A stretch of DNA of 64,000 bases from Alphaproteobacteria bacterium (GCA_965261735.1 OZ253470.1:3072001-3136000), one strand, 5' to 3'. Shown: positions 9,617 through 42,937, counted from the stretch's first letter. The notes: generated from the sequence alone by a model not told the origin. A program made the numbers and translations.

Positions 9617-10081
9617 ATGGTCTACTTTCCGCTCGCCGGCGGCTGTCAGTGCGGTGCCGTGCGCTACCGCGTCCTCGCGCCCCCGAGAACGGTGTTCCAT
9701 TGCCACTGCTCGATGTGCCGCAAGAGCACCGGGGCGACATTCGTCACCTTTGCCGTCATGCGCCGCGACGAGATTCAACTCGAGCGCGGCGAGGACAATC
9801 TCGCCGCCTTCGACAGCTCCGAAAACGTACGCCGGCTCTTCTGCAAGACTTGCGGCTGCAGCCTATTCCTGGATGTCCCCGGGTCCGCCGACATGCGGGC
9901 CTATGCGCCGGCGACCCTTGATGACCGAGCCCGTCCCGGGCACGGCCCGGAGGCCGAGTTCCATTGCTACGTCGGCTCGAAAGTGACGTGGTTCCAAATC
10001 GGTGATTCCCTACCGCAATATGACGGCTCGACCCGCGGCGCCGAGCCCGACCGCCTCGGCCCCGGTGCCGCTCCCGCTTGA
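9617..10081 (+). CDS. GFA family protein (glutathione-dependent formaldehyde-activating enzyme-like)
   Basis: GGCQCGAVRY, HCHCSMCRK, FCKTCG zinc motifs. Confidence 0.92.
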   Translation: MVYFPLAGGCQCGAVRYRVLAPPRTVFHCHCSMCRKSTGATFVTFAVMRRDEIQLERGEDNLAAFDSSENVRRLFCKTCGCSLFLDVPGSADMRAYAPATLDDRARPGHGPEAEFHCYVGSKVTWFQIGDSLPQYDGSTRGAEPDRLGPGAAPA

Positions 10082-10085
10082 GGCT

Positions 10086-11096
10086 TCATTCGAGGTGGAT
10101 CACCCCGTCGGGGTGGAAGGCGCGGAAGGCGAAGGCGAAGCTCACGTCGTAGGGGACGTCCTCGAGCCCGACGGTGGTGCGGCGCTGCACCACGACGTTG
10201 CCGACGTCGCGACCGAGCACGACGGCGCGCGTATCGTGGATCGAGTTCTGGCCGGGCGTCCAGCGCAGCTCCAGATCGCCGGCCCTGACCACGCCTCGGG
10301 CGCGCACCAGCGCCAGGCTCCACGACTGCGTGCCGACCACGACGACACGTGCGAACGGCGCGAGCCCGTCCGGCAGGCGGTAGGGCATGCGCACGGAGCC
10401 CGACGCGGAGTCGTAGCCCTCATACGGCGTGAGGCCATAGGGGCGGGCGCGCGCGTCGTCGGGGATCAGCAGCTTGCCCTCGGGGGCACGCTGACGAAAT
10501 AGCGCGAACGACTCGAGGCGCGCCGGCACCATCGCGAGGCGGGTACCCGTGAGCGTCCCGACGATCGCCTCGCCGAGGAACTGCTGCCACCAGCTCTCCG
10601 TCTGGCGGTCATACATCACCATGTCGTAGTGGCGAATGCGGCCGGTATTGCCGAAGTCGAGGGTGCGCCCGGCCACGCGCCGGTCGAAGACGACTGCCGA
10701 GTTGCACAACGGGCAGTAGCTCACCAACACCGGCACGCCGGCCACGGTGTCGTTGACGATCTCGTGCCACAGCAGGATGCGCAGCGGGTAGGCGCGGGCA
10801 TCTCCGGCGATCGTGACGCTGACCACTGGCTCCATCGAGCCGATGCCGGTCGCGCTTGCGGCGCCGACGAAGCGCGGCATGTCGATCGGCGGGATACTGT
10901 CGCGGCGCGGCCCGTCCGTGACGATCTCGCCGAGATCGATGGAGCGGCGCGCGAAGTCGGTGGCTGGGAACTCGGCGCGCCATACCGCGGCACCGCCGTC
11001 GTCGCCTTTTGCGGGAGTGCCTAGGGGAAGCGCTATCAGCACAACCACCGCGACGATCCAACGCCCTCGCCCCATCCTGAAACGGCCTCCCGCCAT
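10086..11096 (-). CDS. DUF3179 domain exported protein
   Basis: Signal peptide; RDSIPPID.P, ARAYPLRILLWHEIVND, YCPLC, MYDRQTESWWQQ. Confidence 0.85.
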   Translation of the reverse strand: MAGGRFRMGRGRWIVAVVVLIALPLGTPAKGDDGGAAVWRAEFPATDFARRSIDLGEIVTDGPRRDSIPPIDMPRFVGAASATGIGSMEPVVSVTIAGDARAYPLRILLWHEIVNDTVAGVPVLVSYCPLCNSAVVFDRRVAGRTLDFGNTGRIRHYDMVMYDRQTESWWQQFLGEAIVGTLTGTRLAMVPARLESFALFRQRAPEGKLLIPDDARARPYGLTPYEGYDSASGSVRMPYRLPDGLAPFARVVVVGTQSWSLALVRARGVVRAGDLELRWTPGQNSIHDTRAVVLGRDVGNVVVQRRTTVGLEDVPYDVSFAFAFRAFHPDGVIHLE

Positions 11097-11203
11097 GGCT
11101 CGCGTCGATTGTTCCGCGGCAGCACGTCGTGCGCAAGCGCGCCGCGGCGTCGCGGCACTTGTCTTCGCGGCCGACGGGGGCTACATCCCTGGGGCACGAC
11201 TGC

Positions 11204-11905
11204 ATGACGGATTCGCGCCCCATTGGCTGGGTGGCGCGGTTGTCGGTTTGGGAACGACCAGTGTCGAAGTTTCGCCGATATACGTGGACGGACCGCTTGA
11301 TGCGGCTCGCGTCGCATCGCCTCATCGTCCCGCTGAAGCGAAGCCAGCACCCGCCCGAATATTCGGCTCGCGGCATACTCGTCGGCATTGTGTGGGGGCT
11401 GACTCCGACGGTCGGCGTGCAGATGGCGGCGGTGTTCGCGACGTGGACGCTCGGGCGCCGCCTGTTCGGCTGGAACTTCAACCTGATCATGGCGCTCGCC
11501 TGGACCTGGATCAGCAACCCGCTGACCATGGTCCCGATCTACTACCTGTTCTACGTCACCGGTCAGATCATGTTCGGGCGCTGGTCCGACCTCGCCGGCT
11601 ACGACGTGTTCGCCACCCTGTTCTCGCAGGCCTTCGCTTCCGGCACCGGGATCCTGGAGTCGGCGCGGGCGACGTTGTCCATTGCGGTCAAGGACTTTGG
11701 CCTGACGCTGCTCGTCGGCTCGCTTCCCTACGCGGTGGTCGGCGGTGCACTCGGCTTCTGGTGGGGCGTGCGGTTCGTGCTGCGCTACCGCGCGGCGCGC
11801 ACGGCGCGCGCGGCCCGCAGACGCAGCCGGCGGCTGGCGCGCGCCCGGCAGCTGGCGCCGCAGCCTGCGGCACCCAAGGCGTCGCGCGCCGTGGATCGGG
11901 CTTGA
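11204..11905 (+). CDS. DUF2062 domain membrane protein
   Basis: HPPEYSARGILVG...PTVGVQM...TWISNPLT pattern; start uncertain. Confidence 0.8.
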   Translation: MTDSRPIGWVARLSVWERPVSKFRRYTWTDRLMRLASHRLIVPLKRSQHPPEYSARGILVGIVWGLTPTVGVQMAAVFATWTLGRRLFGWNFNLIMALAWTWISNPLTMVPIYYLFYVTGQIMFGRWSDLAGYDVFATLFSQAFASGTGILESARATLSIAVKDFGLTLLVGSLPYAVVGGALGFWWGVRFVLRYRAARTARAARRRSRRLARARQLAPQPAAPKASRAVDRA

Positions 11906-11991
11906 CCAGCCGATCACCCCAGGACTAGCGTAGACGAAAGCGGTGTCCGCGTGGCGCCCTTGACGCTGAGACCTGCTCAAGAGGAAAAACG

Positions 11992-13362
11992 ATGGCCAGA
12001 CACATCAAGTGCGGCACCCTGTTCGACGGCCTCGGCGACGACGCCGAGAGCGATCAGACCCTGGTCATCGAGGACGGCCTCCTCACCTATGTCGGGCCCT
12101 CCGACAAGGCACCGCAGGCTGAGGCGGGCGACGAGATCGTCGACCACTCGAAGTATTTCGTTATGCCGGGCCTCACCGATATCCACACCCATCTTTCATA
12201 CGGCAACGCGCAGTGCGAGGAAGACATCGACCTCTATGCGGCCGTCGAGTTTCGCGCCATTCGGGCGGTGCTGAACGCACAGCGTCTGCTGGCCGCGGGT
12301 TATACGTCGATGGCCGATCCTGGCGGCTCCGCCCGCGTGCCGATCTCGGCCCGCGACGCGATCAACGCCGGCATGTTCCCAGGGCCACGGATCACTTGCT
12401 CTGGCCCCTACATCACCAGCCGGCAGGGGTTAACCGACTACTACCCGTCCTGGTTCGGATGCCCGGAGACATCGATCGGCCACTTGGTGCAAAACGTGAC
12501 CGAGGCGATCGAGGTCATTCGCGCCCAGGTCAAGGACGGCGTGGATTTCGTGAAGTTCGCGATGGACGGCAAACAGCTCAACGACAAGGGTGAGCTGGTG
12601 GCCTCGTTCAATCAGGCGGAGACGACCAAAATGGTTACGGAATGCCACCGCCTGGGCAAGAAGGTGGTGATGCACGCGCGCGGCCGCGAGGGCACGTTGT
12701 ATTCGGCGCGGGCCGCGGCCGACGTGATCTTCCATGCGTCATGGATGGACGAGGAGGGGCTCGCGGCGGTGCTCGAGAACGGTTGCGCGATCTGCCCGAC
12801 GCTCACGCTGCCCTACAACAACATCACGTTCACCCAGCCCAGCGATCCCTCCTTCAAGCGGGTGCGGCCCGACATCGGCTCGGCCGAGTGGGCCGTGGCC
12901 ATGAAGTCGCTGAGCACCGCGCATAAGGCGGGCGTACCCTTCATGACCGGCACCGATTCGGGTTTCGCTATCACGCCCTACGGCGAATGGCATGCCCGCG
13001 AGATCGAGCTCTTCGTCAAGTATCTCGGCTTCACGCCGGCCGAGGCACTGCGTTCGGCGACCTCGGTGAGCGCCTCGTTCCTGTCGGACGGCGAACGCCT
13101 TGGGGCGCTCGCGGCGGGCCGTCATGCCGATTTGATCGTCGTCGACGGCAATCCGCTCATGAACGTGTCGGTGCTGTTGGACAAGGCGTTGATCAAGGAG
13201 GTCTATCTGGCGGGCGATGCGATCGCCCTCGATCTGCCGCCGATCCAGACGCAGGGCGTCAGCACCTTCTCCTATCGCTTCTGGCAGGACATGTACGATC
13301 AGGAGCGGGTCAAGGCGCTCGGCGCCGAGGGCGGCGCGATCCGTCACATCGAAGCCGCCTAG
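11992..13362 (+). CDS. Metal-dependent amidohydrolase (Xaa-Pro dipeptidase/ochratoxinase-like subfamily), copy A
   Basis: MPGLTDIHTH, FVK, MHARG, FHAS, GTDSG binuclear ligands. Confidence 0.9.
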   Translation: MARHIKCGTLFDGLGDDAESDQTLVIEDGLLTYVGPSDKAPQAEAGDEIVDHSKYFVMPGLTDIHTHLSYGNAQCEEDIDLYAAVEFRAIRAVLNAQRLLAAGYTSMADPGGSARVPISARDAINAGMFPGPRITCSGPYITSRQGLTDYYPSWFGCPETSIGHLVQNVTEAIEVIRAQVKDGVDFVKFAMDGKQLNDKGELVASFNQAETTKMVTECHRLGKKVVMHARGREGTLYSARAAADVIFHASWMDEEGLAAVLENGCAICPTLTLPYNNITFTQPSDPSFKRVRPDIGSAEWAVAMKSLSTAHKAGVPFMTGTDSGFAITPYGEWHAREIELFVKYLGFTPAEALRSATSVSASFLSDGERLGALAAGRHADLIVVDGNPLMNVSVLLDKALIKEVYLAGDAIALDLPPIQTQGVSTFSYRFWQDMYDQERVKALGAEGGAIRHIEAA

Positions 13363-13392
13363 GTAGCGGCATCGCGGGCCGGCCGCCGCCCG

Positions 13393-14220
13393 ATGGCTAG
13401 CAGGGAACCGGTCGCAGGCCGGGAACTAAGCCCGGGCGCGGCGGCGGTTCGCTTCCTGCGCCTGCATCCCAACCTGATCCGCGTTGTCGTCGTCGCTATC
13501 TTCTTCATCGCGTGGGAGTACTTCGGGCGTTCGGTCAGCCCACTCTTTCTCAGCTCGCCGACAAAGGTGTTCGTGGCGACCTGGGAGGTCATCCTGAGCG
13601 GTGATCTCGCCGTGGCGCTCAAGGAAAGCTTGTTGCTGTTTACGGTCGGAATGACCGTTTCGATAGTCGGCGGCATCGCGCTCGGCGTGATGCTCGGCCA
13701 GTGGTGGTTCATCGAATACACGCTCGACCCTTTCGTCAACGCGCTCTACGTGACTCCGCGGATCGCGCTCCTGCCCCTCATCATCCTGTGGGCCGGGCTG
13801 GAGACCGCTGGCAAGCTAACGATTCTCATTTCGATTGCGATCTTTCCCGTGATCATCAACACCTACGCCGGCATCAAGGACGTGCGCGGCTCGCTGCTGG
13901 AGATCGGCCGCGCCTTCGGCGCCAGCGAAAGCGACATCTTCTTCAAGATCACACTTCCGGCCGCGACGCCCTACGTGATGGCCGGCATTCGCCTCTCGGT
14001 CGGGCTCGGCATCACAGCAATGATCGTGGCCGAGTTCTTCACGGCGATCTCCGGGCTCGGCGGGATGATCGTCAATTACGGTGCCGTGTTCGCGACCTCG
14101 AAGATGTTCGTGCCGATCATTATCGTAGGCCTCATGGGCGTCGCCCTGACCCAGCTCGTCCAGTATACGGAGCGCAGACTGTCGAAGTGGCGCACGTTGG
14201 AGCGCGAGCGCATCAAGTAG
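13393..14220 (+). CDS. ABC transporter permease, NitT/TauT (SsuC-like) family
   Basis: Multiple TM segments; EIGRAFGAS EAA-like loop; IVAE motif. Confidence 0.92.
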   Translation: MASREPVAGRELSPGAAAVRFLRLHPNLIRVVVVAIFFIAWEYFGRSVSPLFLSSPTKVFVATWEVILSGDLAVALKESLLLFTVGMTVSIVGGIALGVMLGQWWFIEYTLDPFVNALYVTPRIALLPLIILWAGLETAGKLTILISIAIFPVIINTYAGIKDVRGSLLEIGRAFGASESDIFFKITLPAATPYVMAGIRLSVGLGITAMIVAEFFTAISGLGGMIVNYGAVFATSKMFVPIIIVGLMGVALTQLVQYTERRLSKWRTLERERIK

Positions 14221-14398
14221 GCGGTCGACGGCCCGAGAGTGGCGAGTTGAACTGCGCCATGGCGACGGCTATCATCGCGCCGCGGCGGTGGTCGATTAGC
14301 GGCGCCGCTAGGCAAAAGGAATAATGTGGCCCACCGAATCAGGTCGGGCCGATGGATCGGAAACAACATCCGATCAGGCGAGGAAAGGGAGGAGAGTC

Positions 14399-15430
14399 AT
14401 GGGGACGGGTTTATGGAGTAGGTCACGACGCGCGCTCTTGGGGACGGCGGTCGGCGTGCTCGCGGCGGTGATCGTCGCGGGCGGGGCGAGCGCGGCCGAA
14501 CTCATGGTCGTCAAGCGCTCCAATGGATCGGGTGCGCCGCAACCCTTCGGACTGCCATGGTACGTCGCCGATGAGATGGGCTTCTTCGCCAAGCATGGCA
14601 TCAAGTTCGAGGAGGTCTACGTCAAGGGCGACGCCAACAGCATGCGCGCGCTGCTCGCCAACCAGGCTCTGGTCGGCGGCGTCGGTCCGACGACGATGTT
14701 CTCGGCCCTGAGCGAGGGCGCCAAAGTCAAGGTCATCGTCGCCTCGCAGCCGGTGGTCGACTACCACATCATCGCCCGCAAGGGCGTCGCCACCACACTG
14801 AGCGAGTTGGCGGGCTTGACCTTCGCGTCGGCGGGCCCGATGGACCTCACCACCGAGATTCCGAAGATGGTGCTGCGCAAGAACGGCGTCGACCCGAGCA
14901 CGGTGAAGTTCCAGCAGGTCGGCAGTCACGCCGCGCGCCTACAGGCCGTGATCGCGGGCCGCGTCCAGGCGACGATGATCAATACGCTCTATACGACGAT
15001 CGGCCATCGCGCCGGCGACATCAACATCATCACGCCGGTGGCCTTGGAGTTCCCCGGGCTTGGTTACACCTACCTCGCGGTGCGTGAAGGGGACCTAGCG
15101 GATCCCAAGATGCGCAAGGCCCTGAAAGGGTTCGTCCACGGCACCATCGAAGGTGCACGGTTCATCATGGACAACCCTGAGCAGGCGGCGGGGATCATGC
15201 ACAAGATCCTTCCCGACGTCGACAAGGACATTTTGGTCGAAGTCATCGGGCGGCTCAACGCCACGAAGGTGTGGGGCGTCAACGGTGGGGTCGAGCCTGA
15301 GATCACCGAGTTCACCGTCAAGGTACAGATGGAAATGGGCGGGTTGAAAAAGAAGCTCACGGCGGCGGACGTTCTTGACCGTACGCTGGTGGAAGAGGTG
15401 CTAGCCGAGATCGGCCCCTATAAGGGCTGA
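14399..15430 (+). CDS. ABC transporter substrate-binding protein, NitT/TauT (NMT1-like) family
   Basis: Signal peptide ending ASA; VADEMGFFAKHG; ARLQAVIAGRV. Confidence 0.88.
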   Translation: MGTGLWSRSRRALLGTAVGVLAAVIVAGGASAAELMVVKRSNGSGAPQPFGLPWYVADEMGFFAKHGIKFEEVYVKGDANSMRALLANQALVGGVGPTTMFSALSEGAKVKVIVASQPVVDYHIIARKGVATTLSELAGLTFASAGPMDLTTEIPKMVLRKNGVDPSTVKFQQVGSHAARLQAVIAGRVQATMINTLYTTIGHRAGDINIITPVALEFPGLGYTYLAVREGDLADPKMRKALKGFVHGTIEGARFIMDNPEQAAGIMHKILPDVDKDILVEVIGRLNATKVWGVNGGVEPEITEFTVKVQMEMGGLKKKLTAADVLDRTLVEEVLAEIGPYKG

Positions 15431-15439
15431 GTACTCTCA

Positions 15440-15471
15440 AGGGGGAGGGCCGCACGCGCGGTCCTCCCCCT
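15440..15471 (+). terminator. GC-rich hairpin after the binding-protein gene (terminator or mRNA stabiliser)
   Basis: AGGGGGAGGGCCGC-ACGC-GCGGTCCTCCCCCT. Confidence 0.55.
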
Positions 15472-15522
15472 ATGCGTTTTCGCGGAGGCGCTCTCTAGAC
15501 CGCCGAGGACGGATGGCTTGGC

Positions 15523-16221
15523 ATGACCCTGAGTATCGATGACGTTCTGAAACGGATCGCCCAGATGCACGAGGAGCGGCCGCTGTATTCGCAGCCGCTG
15601 TGGCGCGACTTGGTGGACGGCAATCTAAGCCGCGATCAGGTCAAGGAATTCGCCTACCACTACAGCATCGTGCCGCTGCCCAACTACAACTACCATGGCC
15701 GGTTGTACCTGCACTGCCCGGACTACCGTTGGCGCAAGCTGATCGCCGAGATTTGCTACGAGGAGGGAACCGGCAAGTTGTTCGCCGGCGGCCGCCCGCA
15801 CTGCGAGCTGTACATCGATTTCGGGACGGCGGTGGGTTGGACGGAGGAGGAGCTGTGGAAGGCCGACTACATGCCGACCGCGCTCGCCTGGAAGGCGTAC
15901 CTGGAGAAGCTGTGCGAGTCGGATTTCCTCGAGGGGGCGACCGCCCACATGCTCTCCGGCGAGGCCATGATCCCCGGTACCTTCGGGCGTATCGCCGACA
16001 AGTTTCAGGAGAAGTTCGGGCTGAGCGAGCAGCAGGTCGCGTTCTGGCGCGTGCACGATGTGGCCGACGGTGACCATTCGGGGATCGGGCGCGAGCTCCT
16101 CGAAGAGTTCGCGCCGACCCAGGCCGATCGTAAGCGCGTCATCAAGATCGTCGACGCGTACAAGGACGTCGTCTTTTTTATGTATGGAGAGATCTACCGG
16201 CGCGTGCAAGCGGTTCAGTAG
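15523..16221 (+). CDS. Heme-oxygenase-like diiron enzyme (CADD/PqqC/TenA-like fold)
   Basis: YEEG...RPHCELY, SGEAM, FWRVHDVADGDH supply an E,H,E,H,D,H ligand set like CADD. Confidence 0.82.
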   Translation: MTLSIDDVLKRIAQMHEERPLYSQPLWRDLVDGNLSRDQVKEFAYHYSIVPLPNYNYHGRLYLHCPDYRWRKLIAEICYEEGTGKLFAGGRPHCELYIDFGTAVGWTEEELWKADYMPTALAWKAYLEKLCESDFLEGATAHMLSGEAMIPGTFGRIADKFQEKFGLSEQQVAFWRVHDVADGDHSGIGRELLEEFAPTQADRKRVIKIVDAYKDVVFFMYGEIYRRVQAVQ

Positions 16222-16267
16222 GTGATCTGGCCGCCGGCCCGCGCGCGGCGGAGACAGGAGGACGACA

Positions 16268-17617
16268 ATGGCGATGCACTTGCGTTGCGGCAAGCTGTTT
16301 ACCGGCCTCGAGGACGATGCGCGGAGCGGCCAGACCGTGGTCGTCGATGGCGGCGCGGTCGCCTATGTCGGGGCCACCGAAAAGGCGCCGCCCGCGACGC
16401 CCGCCGATGAGGTCGTCGACTACGCCGACTACTTCGTAATGCCCGGGCTCATCGACGCCCATACCCACCTCTCCTTCGGCAACGCCGTCACCGAAGAAGA
16501 CTTGGATATGTACACGCCGCTCGAGTTCCGCTCGCTTCGCGCATTGCTCAACGCGCAACGCGTGTTGGCGGCGGGCTTCATCGGCGTGATCGATCCCGGC
16601 TGTTCGGGCCGCGTGATGGTCGCGGTAAGGGACGCCATCAACGCCGGCATGTTCGCCGGCCCCCGGATCGCCTGCTCGGGCCCGTTTATCGCCAATCATC
16701 AGGGGTACACCGCTTTTTATCCGAGCTGGTTCAACAACCAGGTCGCGGTCTGCTGCATCGTCGACAGCGCCTCGGAGGCGATCGAGGCGATCCGCAGCCA
16801 GATCAAGGACGGCGTCGATTTCATCAAAATCGCGATGGACGGCCGGGCCCGCAATCTCAAGGGAGAGCTCGCCGCCGCCTTCGATCAAGACACTACGAAG
16901 CGCATGATCACCGAGTGCCACCGCCTCGGCAAAAAGGTGATCGTCCACGCCAAGGGTGCCGAGGCGATGTTGTTCGGCGCTCGCGCCGGCGCCGACGTCA
17001 TCTACCACGCGTCCTGGGCCGACGAGGAGGCACTCGACGCGGCGCGCGAGAACGGCTGCGTGATCTGCCCTTCGTTGACCATCATCTACAACAACAACAC
17101 CTTCACCCAAACGACCGATGCGTCCTTCAATCGGACCGATCACGGGGCCAGCGAGTGGGCCGCTGCCCACGTCTCGGCGCGGCGCGCCCGCGAGCTCGGG
17201 ATACCGCTGATGGCGGGTTCGGATTCCGGGTTCGCGATCAACCCCTGTGGCGAGTGGCATGCCCGCGAGCTCGACCTCATGGTAAAGCACGTCGGCCTGA
17301 CGACGGCCGAGGTGTTGCGCGCGGCGACAGCGCTCAATGCTACGTTCTTCGATGACGCAGGCCGCATGGGCGCGCTCGAGGTCGGGCGCCACGCCGATAT
17401 TCTGGTGGTCGACGGCGACCCGCTCGCCGACGTCGCCGTGCTGCTCGACAAATCGGCGATCAAGGAGGTCTATCTCGAGGGAGAGCCCGTTCGGCTCGCG
17501 GTCCGGCCGGCGCAGCTCGCGGGCGAGACCGACAACACATATCGCTTCTGGCAGGACATGTACGATCAGAGGCGTGTGGCCGAGCTCGCCGCCGAGTCGC
17601 GCTTGCGGGCGATCTAG
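16268..17617 (+). CDS. Metal-dependent amidohydrolase, copy B (paralogue of 11992-13362)
   Basis: MPGLIDAHTH, FIK, VHAKG, YHAS, GSDSG; colinear with copy A end to end. Confidence 0.9.
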   Translation: MAMHLRCGKLFTGLEDDARSGQTVVVDGGAVAYVGATEKAPPATPADEVVDYADYFVMPGLIDAHTHLSFGNAVTEEDLDMYTPLEFRSLRALLNAQRVLAAGFIGVIDPGCSGRVMVAVRDAINAGMFAGPRIACSGPFIANHQGYTAFYPSWFNNQVAVCCIVDSASEAIEAIRSQIKDGVDFIKIAMDGRARNLKGELAAAFDQDTTKRMITECHRLGKKVIVHAKGAEAMLFGARAGADVIYHASWADEEALDAARENGCVICPSLTIIYNNNTFTQTTDASFNRTDHGASEWAAAHVSARRARELGIPLMAGSDSGFAINPCGEWHARELDLMVKHVGLTTAEVLRAATALNATFFDDAGRMGALEVGRHADILVVDGDPLADVAVLLDKSAIKEVYLEGEPVRLAVRPAQLAGETDNTYRFWQDMYDQRRVAELAAESRLRAI

Positions 17618-17878
17618 CAGGCTGCTGAAAAAGTCCTCGCCTTTGCAGTTGTGACATGATTCTGTGATTTCTTCGAGTGATGGAGGATGGCATGCGGGGT
17701 CGAGATCAAAGCAGTGGCAATTTATTCAGCTACGTAGACTTGGAAGAGCGTGTTCCGGATGATCATCCGCTGCGTCTGATCCGTGAGATCGTGAACGACG
17801 TATTGGGGTCTCTATCTTCGGAGTTCGAGACGCTTTATTCCCACATGGGTCGCCCATCGATCCCGCCGGAGAAGCTTC

Positions 17879-18983
17879 CTTGCCTATCCGGTTAACGCCC
17901 ATGACCGCTACATGTAGGGTGCCACCACTCTCCCGAGTAAAGCTCGGCATAGGTTGGAGCAGAGGTGTCGCCCGCGATGCCGAGCAATGAGCGGAAGGCG
18001 TTGAACGGGTAGAACCGCCTGTTGAAGCGGAAGGTGAACTCGTTGAGGTAGGCTTGTAGGTGCTGGTGGCTAACGCCGTGGTGGATACCGATCAGCCACG
18101 TCTTCAGGTTGGCGAAAACCAGATGGATGATCGGCAGGTATTGCTCGGCAACCTCTGGATCACCACACTCGGCAACAGCGAAGTGCTCATAGCCGCGCTT
18201 ACCGAGGCCAGCATAGCCGCTCCAATCGTCAGTAACGATCAGCGATCGCGGCGCGACGGTGCTCTCGACGAACCCACAGAGCGACTCGGCGCTACGGTCG
18301 AGCACGACGGCGAGCCGAACGCGTCCGGCATAGCGTCCGTCTTTCCGGTTGTCGAGCTTGGTGCCCGGCTTTCGATGACGCACCTCGATGGCACAGGAGA
18401 CGGGAACCTTGTGGTGAACACCACGGCCTTCCCCACGCGTTCGCCCGCCAACCCAGGTTTCGTCCACCTCAACATGGTTCTTGGGCTGTCCACCGATCCT
18501 GTCTTGGTTGGGCCGCACCATGCCCGAGCGGAGCTTGTGGAGAATTTGAAAGGCCGTCTCGTAGCGCGAAAGACCAAGTTGCCGCTGAAACTGCACGGCG
18601 GACATGCCGGGCGTCTGACTGGCGACCAGATAAGCGGCCCAGAACCAGACGTTCAGCGGAGTGTGGCTACGCTCCATCACTGTTCCCACCGTCAGCCCGG
18701 TGTTCTGGCGGCACTTGCGGCAGCGCAGGACGCCAGGGCGGTTTTCAAAGTGGAACGGCTCTCCCGCCGTGCCGCAGTGCGGGCAGGCAAAGCCGTCTCC
18801 CCAGCGGGCTTTCTCCAGGTAGGCGGCGCAGGCCGCATCATCGGGGAAAAGTCGCTGGAACTCGGGTAGCGAATGCGGGAATGGGAGATCGGCGCGGTCG
18901 AGAACATCCATGGCGCGCTCCCCTATATCCGGGTTGCGCCCATTCTAGCCCTAGTGAGTGTGGGTGTAAACCGGATAGGCAAG
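17879..18983 (-). mobile_element. IS1595-family element, copy 1 (1105 bp)
   Basis: IRs CTTGCCTATCCGG / CCGGATAGGCAAG; 8-bp target duplication GAAGCTTC at 17871-17878 and 18984-18991. Confidence 0.95.
17892..18911 (-). CDS. IS1595-family transposase
   Basis: Zinc ribbon CPHC...CRKC, VEVDET, VTDDW, HLQAYLNEFTFRFNRR. Confidence 0.95.
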   Translation of the reverse strand: MDVLDRADLPFPHSLPEFQRLFPDDAACAAYLEKARWGDGFACPHCGTAGEPFHFENRPGVLRCRKCRQNTGLTVGTVMERSHTPLNVWFWAAYLVASQTPGMSAVQFQRQLGLSRYETAFQILHKLRSGMVRPNQDRIGGQPKNHVEVDETWVGGRTRGEGRGVHHKVPVSCAIEVRHRKPGTKLDNRKDGRYAGRVRLAVVLDRSAESLCGFVESTVAPRSLIVTDDWSGYAGLGKRGYEHFAVAECGDPEVAEQYLPIIHLVFANLKTWLIGIHHGVSHQHLQAYLNEFTFRFNRRFYPFNAFRSLLGIAGDTSAPTYAELYSGEWWHPTCSGHGR

Positions 18984-19922
18984 GAAGCTTCTTCGAGCGT
19001 TACTGTTGCAGGCGTTTTATTCGATCCGCTCGGAGCGTCAGCTGATGGAGCAGCTAAACTTCAACATGCTGTTTTGCTGGTTTGTGGGGCTTGGGCTGGA
19101 CGATGGCGTGTGGGACGCCAGCGCGTTCTGCCACAACCGGGACCGTCTTCTGGAGGCGGAGGTTTCGGGGCAGCTGCTTGCGGGGGTTATCCAGCACCAC
19201 AAGGTAGGGGGACTATTGAGCCGGGATCATTTTTCGGTAGACGGAACATTGATCGAGGCCTGGGCGTCGATGAAGAGCTTTCGTCCCAAAGGTGAGGACG
19301 ATGGCGACGGGGGATCGGGGCGCAACGCCGCGCGGGATTTTCATGGCGAGAAACGCTCGAACGCGACCCATGCAAGCACCACTGATCCGGACGCCCGGCT
19401 TTATCGCAAGGGTAATGGCCGGGAAAGCAAGCTGTGTTACATGGGCCATGCGCTGACGGAGAACCGCCATGGTCTGGCAGTCGGCGGCGGCGTGACCATT
19501 GCGTCGGGCACGGCGGAACGCGAAGCCGCCCTTGATCTGATCGACAGGCATCGCCCGGTGGAGAGTAGAGGCGGGCGGCGTCGGATCACGGTGGGCGGGG
19601 ACAAGGGTTTTGACGTCGCGGATTTTGTCGAGGAACTGCGGCACCGCAAGGTGACCCCCCATATCGCCGTCCAGGACCACGTCACCAAGACCGGCAAGCG
19701 GCGCAAGACCAAGATAGACGGGCGCACGACGCGCCATCCCGGTTACGGCGTCAGCCAACGTTGCCGCAAGCGCATCGAGGAGGTCTTCGGCTGGGTCAAG
19801 ACGAGCGCGGGATTGAGCAAGACCAAATTCCGGGGCCGCCACCGGGTCGACGCTTCGTTCACCCTGGCCTTGGCCGCCTACAACCTCGTCCGACTACCCA
19901 GACTGCTGGCGGAGGCGCCAAC

Positions 19923-20084
19923 ATGACGGGCGATGCCGGCACGCCGCTGACCGCAAAGTGGCAGATCATCGAACTGGACGAAGCCCAGGGCATCGGATCG
20001 GTCGAGATTGAAGACGGTTTCACCCTAAGACACGAAATCTCATTTCATTTCGGCGATGAATCCGAGTTCAAGGCCCGGCAATGA
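19923..20084 (+). pseudogene. Small passenger ORF inside the IS5 element, probably internally deleted
   Basis: MTGDAGTPLTAKWQIIE-LDEAQGIGSVEIEDG...FHFGDESEFKARQ; ATG overlaps the transposase stop; ends just inside the right IR. Confidence 0.5.
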
Positions 20085-20345
20085 TGACTTTTTCAGCAAG
20101 CCTGCTAAGGCAAAACCGGCCCACCGGCGGCACCTCCGGCCAGGTCCGCTCCCCAAGGTGAAGCAGATGAAATCGGGGCAAAGCGGACGTGCGGCTTGGG
20201 GGTCGGCTTCGAGCTTCACATGGGGGAGCAGACCATCCCGCCGATCCAGCCGTTCGCCCGCTCGTGACTCCTAGCGGACATTGAGGTCGAAACGCGCTGA
20301 CTGGGTGAAACTCGCTGATCCCGCTCGACCTCAACAGTCGATCGC

Positions 20346-24696: not shown

Positions 24697-25719
24697 ATGT
24701 ACAAATGGGAGACCAGGATGTTGTTGAAGCACTATCTGGACCGGGGTGTCTCGAAGGCGGAGCTGTCGAGGCGGTTCGGGGTGAACCGTCGGACGATCCA
24801 CAATTGGGTCGATACCGGCCAACTGGACCGGGATCTGGCGGCCGGTGCGCGAGGGTATTCGCCCCGTCCGCCGGTGGCCCACAAGCTGGACCCCTACAAG
24901 GCGATCATCGACGCCCGTCTTGAGGCGTTCCCGAAGCTGTCGGCGAAGCGGCTTTTCGATGAGGTCCGCGCTGCGGACTACCCGGGCTGCTACTCTCGCG
25001 TGAACGACTACGTGCGGGCGACGCGACCGCGCGAACCGGTTGAATCGCTGGTCCGGTTCGAGACGCCGGCGGGGCGTCAGGGCCAGGTGGACTTCGGTAC
25101 GTTCACGCTGCCCTGGGGCCGGCGCCATGCCCTGGTGATCGTCCTCGGCTTCACCCGGCTGCTGTGGCTGCACTTCTATACTCGGCAGACCATGCCGGTC
25201 CTGATGGAAGGTCTGGAGAGCGCCTTCGACCGGTTCGGCGGGGTTCCGGAGGAGCTGCTGTTCGACCAGATGCGCGCCGTGGTGCTGTCCGACGACCGCG
25301 GGGCCGGCGGCGGCCTGGTGCTGAACGAGGAGTTTCTGCGGTTCGCCGCGCACTGGGGGTTCATGCCGCGCTCGTGCCGACCCTATCGGGCCCAGACCAA
25401 GGGCAAAGTGGAGCGCCCGATCCGCTACATCCGCGAGAGCTTCTTCTACGGCCGCTCGTTTGCGAATGACAACGATCTCAACGAGCAGGCCGTGCGCTGG
25501 CTGGAGGGCACAGCCAACGTCCGCCGGCATGCCACGACCGGGGAGCGTCCTGTCGACCGCTTCGAGCGCGACGAGCGAGCGGTGCTTCTCCCCTTGGCGA
25601 ACCATCCCTATCGACGTCTCGGCGTCCGGCATGCTCCGGAGCCCGCGCCGCGGCGACTGCCGGCAACCGTGAAGGTCGAGCAGCGACCGCTTAGTGTCTA
25701 TGCGGAGGCGCTGCAATGA
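24697..25719 (+). CDS. istA: IS21 transposase IstA
   Basis: N-terminal HTH, RFETPAGRQGQVDFG, LLFDQM, TKGKVER. Confidence 0.95.
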   Translation: MYKWETRMLLKHYLDRGVSKAELSRRFGVNRRTIHNWVDTGQLDRDLAAGARGYSPRPPVAHKLDPYKAIIDARLEAFPKLSAKRLFDEVRAADYPGCYSRVNDYVRATRPREPVESLVRFETPAGRQGQVDFGTFTLPWGRRHALVIVLGFTRLLWLHFYTRQTMPVLMEGLESAFDRFGGVPEELLFDQMRAVVLSDDRGAGGGLVLNEEFLRFAAHWGFMPRSCRPYRAQTKGKVERPIRYIRESFFYGRSFANDNDLNEQAVRWLEGTANVRRHATTGERPVDRFERDERAVLLPLANHPYRRLGVRHAPEPAPRRLPATVKVEQRPLSVYAEALQ

Positions 25720-26513
25720 ACGCTCCGGCGCCGGCCCGGCGCGACCGGCTGCGGGCAATGCTGGCGGACCTCAAGATGCCGGGCGCGCTGGAGGCCGTCG
25801 ACGGCATCCTCTCGGACGCCGACGGCGGCACGATCTCGGCGGCCGAGGCCATCGAGCAGTTGCTGAACGCCCAGATCGTGCTGCGCAACAACCGCCGTCT
25901 CCAGACCGCCATGCGCTCTTCGCGGCTGCCGGCTGTGAAGACGCTCGATCAGTTCGACTTCGCCTTCCAGCCCAGCATCAAGCGCGAGCAGATCGAGAGC
26001 TTGCACGAGCTCGGCTTCCTGGACCGCGGCGAGAACGTGATCCTGCTCGGCCCACCAGGCGTCGGGAAAACGCACTTGGCGATCAGCCTCGCGATCGCGG
26101 CGGCCGAGGCCGGCCGGCGCGTCTACTACGGCACGCTCGCGGCGCTGATCGAGTCCCTCACCGAGGCCAAGGCCGCCGGCAATCTGACCCGGCGGCTGCG
26201 CGTGCTCACCCATCCGGCCCTGCTGGTGGTCGACGAGATCGGCTACCTGCCGGTCAACCAGGACGGCGCCGTGCTCTTCTTCCAGCTCATCAACGCCCGG
26301 CACGAGAGGGCGTCGACTGTGCTGACGTCGAACAAGGGTTTCGAGGACTGGGGTGGCGTGCTCGGCGACGAGGTCATGGCGGCGGCTCTCATCGACCGCC
26401 TTGTGCACCACTGCCACATCGTCAACATCCGGGGCAACAGCTACCGGATGAAGGAGCATCAGAACCTGCTGCAGTCCGGCTCGGATCGACGCAGGAAAAG
26501 AGCCGCCGCGTGA
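25716..26513 (+). CDS. istB: IS21 helper ATPase IstB
   Basis: GPPGVGKT Walker A, LLVVDEIGY, TSNK, DRLVHH, GNSYR; ATGA overlap with istA. Confidence 0.96.
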   Translation: MNAPAPARRDRLRAMLADLKMPGALEAVDGILSDADGGTISAAEAIEQLLNAQIVLRNNRRLQTAMRSSRLPAVKTLDQFDFAFQPSIKREQIESLHELGFLDRGENVILLGPPGVGKTHLAISLAIAAAEAGRRVYYGTLAALIESLTEAKAAGNLTRRLRVLTHPALLVVDEIGYLPVNQDGAVLFFQLINARHERASTVLTSNKGFEDWGGVLGDEVMAAALIDRLVHHCHIVNIRGNSYRMKEHQNLLQSGSDRRRKRAAA

Positions 26514-31749: not shown

Positions 31750-33051
31750 CTAGGCCGCGACGGGCTGGAAGTGCAGCATGGTTTCGGACACCTCGCCGCT
31801 TACGAGCGCGACCGGCTTGCCATCCTTGATCACCGCGGCGAGGTTTTCCGGCTCCTGCAGGACGCGGATGTCGGCCAGCGGATCGGCCTTGAGGACGATC
31901 ACGTCGGCGAGCTTGCCGCCCGCGATCGTCCCAACCTCGCCCTCGAGCCCGACGGCCAGCGCGTTGCCGCTGGTATTGGCGACGATCGCCTCCATCGGGC
32001 TTAGGCCGACCTCGTTGACGAATATCTCCGCCTCCTTGGCGTGGTACATGCCGTAGGTCATCCAGGTGCAGTTACCGGTATCGCTCCCGGCCAGCAGCCG
32101 GATGCCCCGGGCGTGCGCCTTGCGGCAGGTTTCGATGCAGGCGTTCATATGGCGCATGAGCAGCGCCTCCTCGTCGAGGTAGAAGCCGAAGCCGCCCTCG
32201 CGCTGCAGCGCCAGGATGGCGCTGGTGAAGGTCGGCATGAGGGCGGTGCCGGCGGCGGCCATCGCATCGAGGTCGTCCTCGGTCGCGAAGTCGGCGTGCA
32301 GGACCCAGTCGACGCCAGCCTCCGTCGCCGCGCGGGTCGAGGCCGAGCCGCGCGAGTGGATGGTGACCTTAAGATGGCGGCGGTGGGCCTCAGCGACCAC
32401 GGCCGCGAGCTCGTTGTCGGGAAAGGCCTGAAAGTCGCCCCAGTCGCTGTCGATCATCTTGATGAAGTTGACGCCGTTCTTGGCTTGGCGCCGCACTTCC
32501 TTGACCAGCGCTTCCACGCCGTCGCACAAGACAGAATGGACATGGCGCGGCGTACCGACCCAGGTCGGCTCGCGATCGCCGCCGGCGCCGACCGTGCACA
32601 GGATACGGCCGGCACAGAAGATGCGCGGCCCCTCGATCAAGCCGGCGTTGATGGCCTCACGCACGGCGACGTCGGTGAACCAGGCGCCGCCCGGGACCGA
32701 GATGCTGGTGACGCCGGCGCGCAGCACCTGCTGGGCGTTCATCGCCGAGCGCAGGGCACCGAATTCCGGGCTGGTGTTGGCTTTTGCGACCTTGACTCCG
32801 ACGTAGCCGGGTTGGCCGAAGGTCAGATGGACATGCGCGTCGATCAGGCCGGGCATGATCCACTGCCCTGCCGCGTCGATGACCTCGACCCGATCGCGGT
32901 CGTCGAGGTTGACGCCGCGCGGGAGCGCGCCGATGCTCATGATGCGATTGCCCGATATGACCACGGCGTCGCTGCTGGCGGCCGGACTGCCGGTGCCGTC
33001 GATGAGCGTACCGCCCCGGATCACGATCGTCTTGTCCGCGCTCCCTATCAT
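31750..33051 (-). CDS. Metal-dependent amidohydrolase, third paralogue
   Basis: MPGLIDAHVH, FIK, IHSRG, LHAD, GSDTG. Confidence 0.9.
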   Translation of the reverse strand: MIGSADKTIVIRGGTLIDGTGSPAASSDAVVISGNRIMSIGALPRGVNLDDRDRVEVIDAAGQWIMPGLIDAHVHLTFGQPGYVGVKVAKANTSPEFGALRSAMNAQQVLRAGVTSISVPGGAWFTDVAVREAINAGLIEGPRIFCAGRILCTVGAGGDREPTWVGTPRHVHSVLCDGVEALVKEVRRQAKNGVNFIKMIDSDWGDFQAFPDNELAAVVAEAHRRHLKVTIHSRGSASTRAATEAGVDWVLHADFATEDDLDAMAAAGTALMPTFTSAILALQREGGFGFYLDEEALLMRHMNACIETCRKAHARGIRLLAGSDTGNCTWMTYGMYHAKEAEIFVNEVGLSPMEAIVANTSGNALAVGLEGEVGTIAGGKLADVIVLKADPLADIRVLQEPENLAAVIKDGKPVALVSGEVSETMLHFQPVAA

Positions 33052-33182
33052 GCCGATCACCCCTGCAAATCCCGCCTTTCGACCGTCTCTTTCGATGGTA
33101 AGGGCGCACCATGAGCCGGTCAACCGGACGCGCGGGGTGTCCCCGCCTGCGCGCTTGCCCGCTGGAGCGTAGGCTTCTCCTC

Positions 33183-41166: not shown

Positions 41167-41931
41167 ATGGCATCACTAGACGACGAAAAACTCATACATC
41201 TCTTCACGACGCCGATCCTCAAATACATTTGGCCCGACAGCGAGCAGCTCAATCGCCGACTACGCCGGGCCATTCTCAAGGAGGAGAGCGTCAGCGCGGG
41301 TACCACCTACAGCTCGGTCGGCGGCTGGCAGTCGAACGAGGACTTCCAGAGCTGGGCCGGCGAGGCCGGCCGGACGATCGTCCAGCAGGTCGCGGAGATG
41401 GTCCAGCACGCGACCCACGAGATCCACTCCACCTACCGCGGCCAGGTCGAGCGCAACACCTGGTCGATCTCGGTATGGGCCAACGTGAACCGCAAGGGCG
41501 ACTACCACCGCAACCACCTCCACCCGGGCTCGACCTGGTCGGGCGTCTACATCGTCGACAGCGGCAACGTCAAGACGAGCCCGCCACAGAGCGGCATGCT
41601 GGCACTCATGAACGCCAATCTCGCGTCGCCGATGAGCTTCTACCGCGACGCCATTCCGCTGCGCTACGGTATTCACCCTGAGCCCGGGCTCATGGTGATC
41701 TGGCCGAGCTATCTCGTCCACATGGTGCATCCGCACCAGGGCCGGCGAACCCGCGTCTCGATCTCCTTCAACATCAAGAAGGAACCTTGCCTATCCGGGT
41801 TACACCCACACCCACTAGGGCTAGAATGGGCGCAACCCGGATATAGGGGAGCGCGCCATGGATGTTCTCGACCGCGCCGATCTCCCATTCCCGCATTCGC
41901 TACCCGAGTTCCAGCGACTTTTCCCCGATGA
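41167..41931 (+). CDS. TIGR02466-like putative 2OG-Fe(II) oxygenase; C-terminus altered by IS1595 insertion
   Basis: LFTTPI, SSVGGWQS, WANVN, NHLHPGSTWSGVY, PSYLVHMV.P, RVSISFN; native end KKEPYP* displaced to 42891-42909. Confidence 0.85.
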   Translation: MASLDDEKLIHLFTTPILKYIWPDSEQLNRRLRRAILKEESVSAGTTYSSVGGWQSNEDFQSWAGEAGRTIVQQVAEMVQHATHEIHSTYRGQVERNTWSISVWANVNRKGDYHRNHLHPGSTWSGVYIVDSGNVKTSPPQSGMLALMNANLASPMSFYRDAIPLRYGIHPEPGLMVIWPSYLVHMVHPHQGRRTRVSISFNIKKEPCLSGLHPHPLGLEWAQPGYRGARHGCSRPRRSPIPAFATRVPATFPR

Positions 41932-42890
41932 TGCGGCCTGCGCCGCCTACCTGGAGAAAGCCCGCTGGGGAGACGGCTTTGCCTGCCCGCACTGCGGCAC
42001 GGCGGGAGAGCCGTTCCACTTTGAAAACCGCCCTGGCGTCCTGCGCTGCCGCAAGTGCCGCCAGAACACCGGGCTGACGGTGGGAACAGTGATGGAGCGT
42101 AGCCACACTCCGCTGAACGTCTGGTTCTGGGCCGCTTATCTGGTCGCCAGTCAGACGCCCGGCATGTCCGCCGTGCAGTTTCAGCGGCAACTTGGTCTTT
42201 CGCGCTACGAGACGGCCTTTCAAATTCTCCACAAGCTCCGCTCGGGCATGGTGCGGCCCAACCAAGACAGGATCGGTGGACAGCCCAAGAACCATGTTGA
42301 GGTGGACGAAACCTGGGTTGGCGGGCGAACGCGTGGGGAAGGCCGTGGTGTTCACCACAAGGTTCCCGTCTCCTGTGCCATCGAGGTGCGTCATCGAAAG
42401 CCGGGCACCAAGCTCGACAACCGGAAAGACGGACGCTATGCCGGACGCGTTCGGCTCGCCGTCGTGCTCGACCGTAGCGCCGAGTCGCTCTGTGGGTTCG
42501 TCGAGAGCACCGTCGCGCCGCGATCGCTGATCGTTACTGACGATTGGAGCGGCTATGCTGGCCTCGGTAAGCGCGGCTATGAGCACTTCGCTGTTGCCGA
42601 GTGTGGTGATCCAGAGGTTGCCGAGCAATACCTGCCGATCATCCATCTGGTTTTCGCCAACCTGAAGACGTGGCTGATCGGTATCCACCACGGCGTTAGC
42701 CACCAGCACCTACAAGCCTACCTCAACGAGTTCACCTTCCGCTTCAACAGGCGGTTCTACCCGTTCAACGCCTTCCGCTCATTGCTCGGCATCGCGGGCG
42801 ACACCTCTGCTCCAACCTATGCCGAGCTTTACTCGGGAGAGTGGCGGCACCCTACATGTAGCGGTCATGGGCGTTAACCGGATAGGCAAG
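41786..42890 (+). mobile_element. IS1595-family element, copy 2 (1105 bp)
   Basis: Same IRs as copy 1; 8-bp duplication GAAGGAAC at 41778-41785 and 42891-42898. Confidence 0.95.
41858..42877 (+). CDS. IS1595-family transposase
   Basis: Matches 17892-18911; the only amino-acid difference noticed is W/R near the C-terminus. Confidence 0.95.
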   Translation: MDVLDRADLPFPHSLPEFQRLFPDDAACAAYLEKARWGDGFACPHCGTAGEPFHFENRPGVLRCRKCRQNTGLTVGTVMERSHTPLNVWFWAAYLVASQTPGMSAVQFQRQLGLSRYETAFQILHKLRSGMVRPNQDRIGGQPKNHVEVDETWVGGRTRGEGRGVHHKVPVSCAIEVRHRKPGTKLDNRKDGRYAGRVRLAVVLDRSAESLCGFVESTVAPRSLIVTDDWSGYAGLGKRGYEHFAVAECGDPEVAEQYLPIIHLVFANLKTWLIGIHHGVSHQHLQAYLNEFTFRFNRRFYPFNAFRSLLGIAGDTSAPTYAELYSGEWRHPTCSGHGR

Positions 42891-42937
42891 GAAGGAACCG
42901 TACCCATGATACGCGGGGCGCGGCGCCGGTCGCGCGG

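Follow-up and report, generated by a model that had tools for sequence, protein, structure and literature searches.

Heme-oxygenase-like diiron oxidases (HDOs) are defined by a motif of three histidines and three carboxylates. About a dozen of them have been validated and, in a 2026 review, they are linked to natural-product or cofactor biosynthesis; the review also describes the relatives in pyrroloquinoline-quinone (PQQ) and thiazole synthesis as metal-free (PMC13108848). For CADD, a second study gives Tyr27 of CtCADD as the sacrificial tyrosine with Lys152 as its neighbour, and places CADD orthologs in folate clusters (PMC9522330). The locus considered here lies in a window of 64,000 nucleotides (G000:C1:3072001-3136000), which is the whole stretch of DNA analysed and part of a 5.03 Mb single-contig alphaproteobacterial genome (G000). 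In this window a predicted HDO is encoded in a block of five genes at 11992-17617 on the + strand, together with two related amidohydrolases (AH1 and AH2) and the permease and periplasmic binding protein of an ATP-binding cassette (ABC) importer. The block is interpreted, with a probability of about 0.6, as a module that takes up and breaks down a small organic nitrogen compound, probably one with an amide group. Among the links of the block, that between the binding protein and the HDO is the tightest and the most general.

The predicted diiron protein and its clade

The HDO gene (15523-16221, + strand) encodes 232 amino acids, of which residues 41-207 match PF14518 (Haem_oxygenas_2) with 63.7 bits against a cut-off of 28.9. 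The diiron ligands E/H/E/H/D/H, already pointed out in a sequence-only reading of the window, are found at E81, H93, E147, H178, D182 and H185. They align with the ligand columns of CADD, make up a primary set of three histidines and three carboxylates on the core helices, and are invariant in 27 of 27 aligned clade members. The AF2 model is all-helical (pLDDT 93.2) and, together with the Foldseek matches, gives the seven-helix heme-oxygenase fold. The best Foldseek match is CADD (8va9, E 1.3e-8, TM 0.81/0.87, 22% identity), followed in order by FlcD, PqqC, UndA, BesC, TenA and HrmI, each of them, CADD included, with a probability of 1.00.

By sequence and predicted structure the protein is an HDO outside the CADD-, PqqC- and TenA-type members, an assignment made because of its ligands, its fold and its residue differences. 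CADD was rejected as an identity because TIGR04305 (the CADD family), the one NCBIfam family listed for the protein, reaches 61.1 bits where the cut-off is 200, because the column of Tyr27 in CADD holds a tryptophan (Trp27) that is nearly invariant in the clade and the column of Lys152 holds Ile157, and because no folate families, and thus no placement of the CADD type, were found among the 22 flanking open reading frames (ORFs) scanned, some of which are overlapping alternative frames. PqqC was rejected since NCBIfam gives no PqqC family at E<=0.001, the PDB match to PqqC/D has E 0.51 and no pqq genes flank the block, and TenA/thiaminase II since PF03070 (TenA) is not matched in Pfam at E<=0.001 and the six metal ligands are invariant. 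These scores, with the 22% identity to CADD, answer the earlier concern that the protein might group with canonical PqqC, TenA or CADD, and the earlier statement that pqq, thi and fol genes are not adjacent holds for all the flanking ORFs scanned. The 'pyrroloquinoline-quinone synthase' labels on some homologs (JGI) are automatic names, and the ESM Atlas contains just generic TENA/PqqC-named PF14518 clusters, which gave no functional lead.

A HMMER search of 1.84 billion cluster representatives returned 324 matches at E<=1e-3, 77 at E<=1e-10 and six at E<=1e-30. A word-indexed protein search with the HDO gave 30 proteins, the best 85% identical, and where these have names they are called 'iron-containing redox enzyme family protein' or carry automatic PqqC labels. 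Scanning one genome per species located 86 HDO stretches in 75 loci; most of these belong to uncultured Alphaproteobacteria, and Burkholderiaceae-type, Binataceae and Vicinamibacterales assemblies contribute a few. When this genome was compared with 40 relatives, the clade was present in 8 of the 41, namely in this genome and in all seven others of the same family (3-11 matches each), and in none of the 33 genomes from 33 other families of the same class. The genome itself has 11 HDO copies, identical to the window copy or 40-50% identical to it, and also weaker PF14518 relatives at about 25% identity. A scan of metagenome contigs with a single-protein query gave one 1.5 kb fragment. One contig from a public metagenome-assembled genome (L016) is 98-100% identical at the protein level to a multi-HDO cluster of this genome (G000 4196000-4216000), and a near-identical organism is therefore present in a public collection.

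Genes associated with the diiron protein

Five of the seven genes of the binding-protein subfamily in this genome are located 83-96 bp from an HDO gene, and the other two are 310-340 kb away. The five pairs correspond to about three independent events because they include two recent duplicate pairs. In the fetched loci all 15 binding-protein matches (14 loci) lie within 3 kb of an HDO, a count that is biased because these loci are HDO-centred, so that the own-genome figure alone is unbiased. The binding protein-HDO units are spread over at least five separate branches of the HDO tree.

In a maximum-likelihood tree of 96 distinct HDO sequences the window HDO forms a clade with those of L001-L004 and L017 (six rows, SH-aLRT 100). 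All five of these foreign ortholog loci have an AH1-type hydrolase, 63-68% identical to AH1, directly upstream of the HDO. The gene order is hydrolase, binding protein, HDO, permease and luciferase-like oxidoreductase in L004 and L017, and DUF2062, hydrolase and HDO in L001 and L002; the DUF2062 gene upstream of AH1 in the window (11129-11905) shares the synteny of the latter two. All five ortholog loci also have a divergent gene for an HsaA/HpaH-type flavin hydroxylase (279.5 bits against a cut-off of 450). The best matches in this genome to the luciferase-like oxidoreductase and the HsaA-like hydroxylase are 105 kb and 3 Mb away, respectively.

The neighbours of the HDO paralogs are catabolic and not biosynthetic. 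The ORFs at the 75 loci were called with a simple caller based on GC content at third codon positions (GC3) and then clustered, and families were counted up to four genes from the HDO. At some loci of lower GC the caller chooses the wrong strand, as it does for the HDO in L002, L003 and L004, so that these counts are minimum values. They comprise SDR (14 loci), Rid-family deaminases (13 loci), two-domain VOC proteins that are extradiol-dioxygenase-like (11 loci), NMT1-type binding proteins (11 loci), ABC ATPases (10 loci), alpha/beta hydrolases of the meta-cleavage type (8 loci) and TRAP DctM (8 loci), followed by permeases, aldo-keto reductases (AKR), large subunits of molybdenum hydroxylases and EamA with seven loci each; TctC transporters are also frequent. 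The Rid figure comes from the ORF clustering, since tblastn at E<=1e-15 finds this short protein in two loci only. No families of nonribosomal peptide synthetases (NRPS), polyketide synthases (PKS), ATP-grasp ligases or methyltransferases were found among the 50 neighbour proteins scanned. The circularly permuted ATP-grasp gene that L001 has upstream is part of a different conserved block, which also contains Alpha-E and transglutaminase genes.

Several clusters have the order HDO, AKR, VOC, VOC, hydrolase, binding protein, HDO, permease, HDO, HDO, ATPase and permease. A tree clade of 22 HDOs includes loci with the motif HDO, Rid deaminase and a second PF14518 gene (eight loci inspected). L021, L023, L033, L034 and L039 (at about 10001-11900) have an HDO, a Rid deaminase and a second, more distant PF14518/TENA-like gene near TRAP, SDR or molybdenum hydroxylase genes. 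Hydrolases of the AH type occur within 3 kb of an HDO in seven loci, and amidase-signature enzymes within the same distance in L005 and L064, of which the L005 gene alone was Pfam-scanned. In L030 (8862-11865) a binding protein and an HDO are followed directly by a fused nitrile hydratase, with a beta N-terminal domain and an alpha chain (PF21006, PF02979), a hint that one or more of the HDO paralogs may produce nitriles, like AetD in biosynthesis. Taken as a group, the paralog contexts suggest aromatic or heterocyclic nitrogen compounds.

Other clusters with NMT1-type binding proteins are found elsewhere in the same genome. L078 contains a permease, an NMT1 binding protein, an ATPase and two distant PF14518 genes, with a paralog of AH1 8 kb further on. 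L077 (G000:C1:4200810-4213940) has five HDO paralogs among two NMT1 binding proteins, two permeases and one ATPase, and also encodes an FAD-binding oxidoreductase (PF00890), two alpha/beta hydrolases and a two-domain VOC protein; L079 (G000:C1:636415-643029) is a partial duplicate of it with 99-100% identity. L080 (G000:C1:2186329-2196642) consists of five tandem arginine-deiminase/DDAH-like paralogs (362-385 amino acids) with an NMT1-type binding protein, a creatinase/prolidase-type M24 peptidase, a permease 69% identical to that of the window and a Rieske oxygenase alpha subunit, and looks like a cluster for uptake and breakdown of guanidino compounds.

Binding-protein-dependent ABC systems import rather than export. 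The permease of the block (13393-14220, + strand, 275 amino acids; PF00528, BPD_transp_1, 83.8 bits) is of the NitT/TauT (SsuC/TauC-like) type. Its best NCBIfam scores are SaoP with 123 bits and SsuC with 115.2 bits, both far under the cut-offs, TauC and NtrB are also among the best named families, and it is 66-67% identical to the permeases of L004 and L017. A second NitT/TauT-type permease relative in the window (42938-43789, + strand) is 30% identical to it. The periplasmic NMT1/THI5-like binding protein occupies 14324-15430 (+ strand) as a longest ORF of 368 amino acids (PF09084 65 bits; PF12974, Phosphonate-bd, 54.6 bits), with a putative true start at M26 (14399). Its leader, read from the translation, contains SRRALLG, a twin-arginine-type signal. 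ThiY (3ix1, E 1.1e-6) and 3qsl are its only solved sequence relatives. The AF2 model (pLDDT 90.0) has the thiamin-bound 4nmy as top Foldseek match (E 1.4e-17, 19% identity), and the next matches are 3qsl, 3un6, ThiY, TauA, Thi5, SsuA and PqqT. The permease and the signal-peptide-bearing binding protein of a NitT/TauT importer are thus both encoded, and no cognate ATPase was found among the flanking ORFs.

Uptake of the Ssu/Tau kind was considered and rejected, with 38.2 bits against 163.5 for SsuA_fam, 115.2 against 347 for SsuC and 91.4 against 342 for TauC. A sulfonate or taurine substrate might also be read from the luciferase-like and 'acyl-CoA dehydrogenase-like' genes of the relatives. 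However, the oxidoreductase fits F420/LLM models better than SsuD, and the 'acyl-CoA dehydrogenase-like' gene matches the HsaA/HpaH-type flavin phenol hydroxylase (279 bits against 41 for SfnB).

The ligand pattern of binuclear amidohydrolases is HxH, a carboxylatable lysine, two histidines and an aspartate. AH1 (11992-13362, + strand, 456 amino acids) is an amidohydrolase-superfamily metallohydrolase of the COG1228/carboxypeptidase-like group, and AH2 (16268-17617, + strand, 449 amino acids) is a second member of its family with 59% identity. Both pass the PF01979 cut-off of 25 (90.5 bits for AH1 and 107.8 bits for AH2) and have the features of the binuclear subtype. All the HxH/K/H/H/D ligands that had been claimed for them are there: H65/H67, K188, H228, H248 and D322 in AH1 align with H65/H67, K187, H227, H247 and D319 in AH2. 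The position of the aspartate ligand is occupied by glutamate in the hydrolases of L004 and L017. The closest solved chains to AH1 are an amidohydrolase (8ihq, E 1.8e-41), 2qs8 and the L-Arg carboxypeptidase Cc2672 (3mtw), and the Xaa-Pro dipeptidase equivalog NF051886 is not reached by either protein (203.6 bits for AH1 and 201.9 bits for AH2 against a cut-off of 500). No one-to-one ortholog of AH2 was found in five relatives, where the best full-length match has 57% identity and the family has 7-10 matches per genome. A conserved C-terminal tail of about 50 residues (about 410-456 in AH1 and about 405-449 in AH2) extends beyond the matched parts of solved homologs and is also found in paralogs; its invariant residues are Y428, W431, D433, Y435, Q437, R439 and L443. 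The window also encodes, at 31750-33123 (- strand), an amidohydrolase more distantly related to AH1 and AH2 (31-34% identity).

The proposed pathway and its alternatives

In the proposed pathway a Tat-exported NMT1-type binding protein would capture the compound in the periplasm, and the NitT/TauT-type permease would import it, powered by an ATPase encoded elsewhere. The closest candidate ATPase genes of matching type are located at G000 4201628-4202407 and 637233-638012, in a paralogous multi-HDO cluster and its partial duplicate. The cytoplasmic HDO would then oxidise the imported molecule by means of its two-metal centre and O2, and the two binuclear-metal amidohydrolases would cut amide bonds before and/or after the oxidation, with ammonia or an amino or carboxylic acid released into central metabolism. 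The preferred order is an oxidation making or exposing an amide, imine or nitrile, followed by hydrolysis. The order of the cytoplasmic steps, the oxidation chemistry, the substrate class and the borrowing of an ATPase are predictions, as are a nitrogen-containing substrate and two hydrolytic steps. The uptake-and-catabolism setting asserted by the sequence-only reading is supported by the adjacency of the HDO to binding-protein and hydrolase genes and by the catabolic and transport genes around the paralogs, and is weakened by the ATPase that the block lacks.

A terminator scan shows a GC-rich hairpin with a 14 bp stem and then a U-rich stretch at 15440-15471 (+ strand), just after the binding-protein stop codon. 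The binding protein-HDO gap folds at -51.1 kcal/mol (z -3.2), and a comparable hairpin, of unrelated sequence, follows the binding-protein stop in seven of the eight such gaps folded. The hairpin is likely a partial terminator or an mRNA-stabilising element, a pattern that would be typical of importer operons over-expressing the binding protein. A weak sigma-70-like promoter match ahead of the binding-protein gene (14247-14275, + strand) is the sole match in 10900-18000, and is not above chance because shuffled sequence has a mean of 1.1 matches.

Contigs of four RNA-library runs from two studies match parts of all five genes with 95-100% identity. They bridge AH1 and the permease (X16 record 11), the binding protein and the HDO (X16 record 12, X18 record 27), and the HDO and AH2 (X15 record 6). 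None of the listed contigs bridges the gap between the permease and the binding protein, and the bins upstream of AH1 (10900-11863) are almost without cover, though uncovered stretches prove nothing. One contig of run X16 is without 30 nt (15434-15463) exactly at the hairpin, which could be a strain variant or a skip across the stem during assembly or reverse transcription. Two RNA runs labelled 'sponge metagenome' have shares of 0.12-0.15.

Several observations weigh against the proposed pathway. No ATPase gene (ABC_tran) was found in or beside the block among the flanking ORFs, in agreement with the earlier wording 'ABC importer parts', and import is for that reason not self-sufficient. The ATPase is absent in the ortholog clusters L004 and L017 too, and is present in L008, L012, L014, L016, L022 and L049; because L004 and L017 also lack one, sharing of an ATPase in trans may be normal. 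In L001-L003, the closest orthologs (81-83% identity), the binding protein and permease are not adjacent. The conservation on which the earlier interpretation was staked holds for the hydrolase-HDO pair (5/5) and the binding protein-HDO pair (5/7 in this genome, 14 loci), and does not extend to the five-gene twin-hydrolase layout, which was found in this genome only. As AH2 is without a one-to-one ortholog in the relatives, a pathway with two hydrolytic steps may be particular to this genome, and some of the adjacency in the block could result from recent rearrangement because the region is rich in insertion sequences (IS) and has undergone a recent partial duplication. With a promoter-like site upstream of the binding-protein gene and a hairpin downstream of it, the block could consist of more than one transcription unit, and the RNA-library contigs, which may stem from DNA, do not prove a single transcript. 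The substrate hints disagree: the nearest solved relatives of the hydrolases act on N-acyl amino acids and dipeptides, and those of the binding protein, at 19% identity or less, bind thiamin or pyrimidines. Finally, the approximately dozen validated HDOs are all biosynthetic according to the review (PMC13108848).

The pairing of binding protein and HDO could have a wider meaning, for which the case is tentative. It might mark a new functional class of HDOs, catabolic oxidases hard-wired to ABC importers, in which a different paralog would be responsible for the initial, O2-dependent reaction on each imported organic nitrogen compound. This reaction would convert an amine or amino-acid-type group to an imine, nitrile or amide, from which ammonia and an acid would be formed by Rid deaminases, nitrile hydratase, amidases or, in the present block, the twin amidohydrolases.

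The alternative that survives best, doubtful as it is, regards the block as a stranded remnant, with intact genes in a pathway that has become defunct. The ATPase and the partners (the luciferase-like oxidoreductase and the HsaA-like hydroxylase) would have been lost by IS-driven rearrangement, and the gene order would be partly accidental. The earlier description of a window full of decay was checked in part, and elements of the IS1595, IS5 and IS21 types are found near the block. An IS1595-family element (17878-18984, - strand; transposase PF12762, PF12760, NF033547) bounds the 3' side, beginning 261 bp past AH2, with an IS5-family element (18984-20107) directly adjoining it and an IS21-type pair at 24697-26513. 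The IS1595 element has 265 blastn matches genome-wide (96 of at least 1090 bp) and the IS5 element has 25 (16 of at least 1090 bp). The IS1595 element measures about 1107 bp, encodes a transposase of 339 amino acids and has a second copy in the window (41785-42891), the long copies being about 99.5% identical, and the genome looks to be in an early phase of IS-driven erosion. Furthermore, the segment 13196-16307, with the 3' end of AH1, the permease, the binding protein, the HDO and the first 40 bp of AH2, recurs on the opposite strand at G000:C1:2586256-2589367 with 99.94% identity over 3112 bp, and this truncated second copy abuts a four-copy genome repeat carrying an IS66-family transposase. 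The missing ATPase, the gene order unlike that of L004 and L017, and the distance of the partner genes, with which the clusters of relatives continue, are also what a remnant would leave.

The state of the genes themselves speaks for a functioning block. As the sequence-only reading had it, five co-oriented, full-length ORFs fill 11992-17617 exactly, without internal stops and separated by gaps of 30, 103, 92 and 46 nt from 5' to 3' (103 becomes 178 from the probable start at 14399). All ligands are intact, the GC3 of the five genes (0.84-0.87) is like that of well-formed genes elsewhere in the window, and all five proteins exceed the curated Pfam cut-offs, none of them reaching an NCBIfam equivalog cut-off. 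The lengths agree with those of the orthologs: by ORF calls at the ortholog loci the binding proteins have 342-346 and the HDOs 231-232 amino acids, and the amidohydrolase matches beside the HDO orthologs are 1359-1362 bases (about 453 amino acids), the ORF calls of 454-498 amino acids for these hydrolases varying because the start codons are uncertain. Of the two copies of the duplicated segment, that in the window is complete, and upstream of it there is synteny with relatives. A defunct pathway also fits poorly with RNA-library contigs from two studies on all five genes, with L004 and L017, where the ATPase is lacking too and may normally be shared in trans, and with the presence in the genome of ATPases 64-74% identical to those of related HDO clusters.

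Salvage of a cofactor or vitamin precursor, analogous to ThiXYZ, YlmB and TenA, is improbable. The importer would take up a formylated pyrimidine, the amidohydrolase would deacylate it and the heme-oxygenase-fold protein would finish it, or in a variant act as a CADD-/PqqC-like cofactor enzyme. The arrangement of a hydrolase, an NMT1-type importer and a heme-oxygenase fold does resemble thiamin salvage, and the fold is common to TenA, PqqC and CADD, but TenA and PqqC are metal-free whereas the six metal ligands of the HDO are invariant, PF03070 and PqqC models are unmatched, TIGR04305 reaches 61 of 200 bits, and Tyr27 and Lys152 are replaced by Trp and Ile. The binding protein leans towards salvage, in that ThiY, a formylaminopyrimidine binder (E 1.1e-6), is its only solved sequence relative with a known ligand, a thiamin-bound protein is its best structural match and the PQQ-binding PqqT is also listed. 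A vitamin route would on the other hand be a misfit for 11 paralogs per genome among ring-cleavage, amidase and Rid genes, and thi, pqq and fol were not seen among the 22 flanking ORFs scanned. A biosynthetic role, in which the HDO tailors an amino-acid-derived natural product and the neighbours serve precursor supply or self-protection, would follow the example of every validated HDO in the review (natural-product or cofactor biosynthesis; PMC13108848) and is nevertheless very improbable, as the transport system is of the importing kind, the 50 neighbour proteins scanned include no NRPS, PKS, ATP-grasp ligase or methyltransferase, and those present are ring-cleavage dioxygenase-like proteins, hydrolases, Rid deaminases and molybdenum hydroxylases.

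Comparison with known systems

The families of the block are known, and their importer-linked catabolic setting appears to be undescribed. Literature linking an HDO or PF14518 protein to an ABC importer or to catabolism was not found in a search that covered neither subscription-only papers nor supplements, which may hold HDO networks listing the clade; to this extent the earlier remark that no pathway with such a layout has been described can be upheld. The clade is tied gene-to-gene to a binding protein, and the ligand of that protein is therefore a handle on an orphan HDO clade, as it would identify the HDO substrate or a close precursor. With 3-11 copies per genome in one alphaproteobacterial family, the HDOs may provide a range of oxidative first steps in the use of dissolved organic nitrogen or aromatic amides, and the clade is a likely source of new diiron reactions.

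The closest solved relatives of the HDO, by sequence and fold, are the self-sacrificing p-aminobenzoate synthases CADD and NePabS (1rcw, 8va9, 9pj4), with E 1.7e-9 for a single sequence, 3.2e-15 to 8e-14 for a profile and TM 0.81/0.87. The three histidines and three carboxylates occupy aligned positions in these synthases and the HDO, the lengths are similar and the seven-helix core is shared. The HDO differs from CADD in its 22% identity, its TIGR04305 score (61 against 200), Trp27 and Ile157, the importer and hydrolase neighbours and the 11 copies per genome. With UndA, BesC, FlcD/FlcE, HrmI, SznF, AetD and SktA it shares the HDO fold (probability 1.00 for FlcD, UndA, BesC and HrmI) and the ligand logic, and by analogy with such substrate-oxidising HDOs it most likely works on free small-molecule acids or amino acids. 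Identity to these biosynthetic HDOs is only 12-20%. Their known members are all encoded in biosynthetic clusters (PMC13108848), whereas the clade is found beside ABC-importer binding proteins and catabolic enzymes.

The thiamin salvage system ThiXYZ-YlmB-TenA has the same kinds of parts, namely an NMT1-type binding protein, a NitT/TauT-type permease, a deacylating hydrolase and a heme-oxygenase-fold enzyme. YlmB is an M20-type hydrolase, whereas the hydrolases of the block belong to the amidohydrolase superfamily. In addition, the HDO keeps its dimetal site, leaves the TenA model unmatched and belongs to a multi-copy family among catabolic genes. The amidohydrolase-superfamily carboxypeptidases and N-acyl-amino-acid hydrolases match AH1 over nearly the full catalytic domain (E 1.8e-41 to 1.8e-21) with the same ligand pattern; the solved comparators are 8ihq and 9l36 (labelled amidohydrolase), Cc2672 (3mtw), the prolidase-like 2qs8 and 3feq, and ochratoxinase (4c5y). 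AH1 and AH2 differ from these in the extra C-terminal tail of about 50 residues and in the NF051886 score (203 against 500 bits).

Amino-acid monooxygenases that form amides are known to be paired with amidases, for example lysine 2-monooxygenase with 5-aminovaleramide amidohydrolase. The resemblance to the block would be one of pathway logic only, with an O2-dependent oxidation beside an amide hydrolase and release of ammonia, and the amidase, nitrile hydratase and Rid genes beside the paralogs would by the same analogy fit imine, nitrile or amide products. The oxidases in those pairs are, in contrast, flavoproteins with no kinship in sequence or fold to HDOs. If a catabolic, importer-linked class of HDOs does exist, it would be the first catabolic role for the superfamily and a diiron counterpart of the flavin-dependent routes that combine an amide-forming monooxygenase with an amidase.

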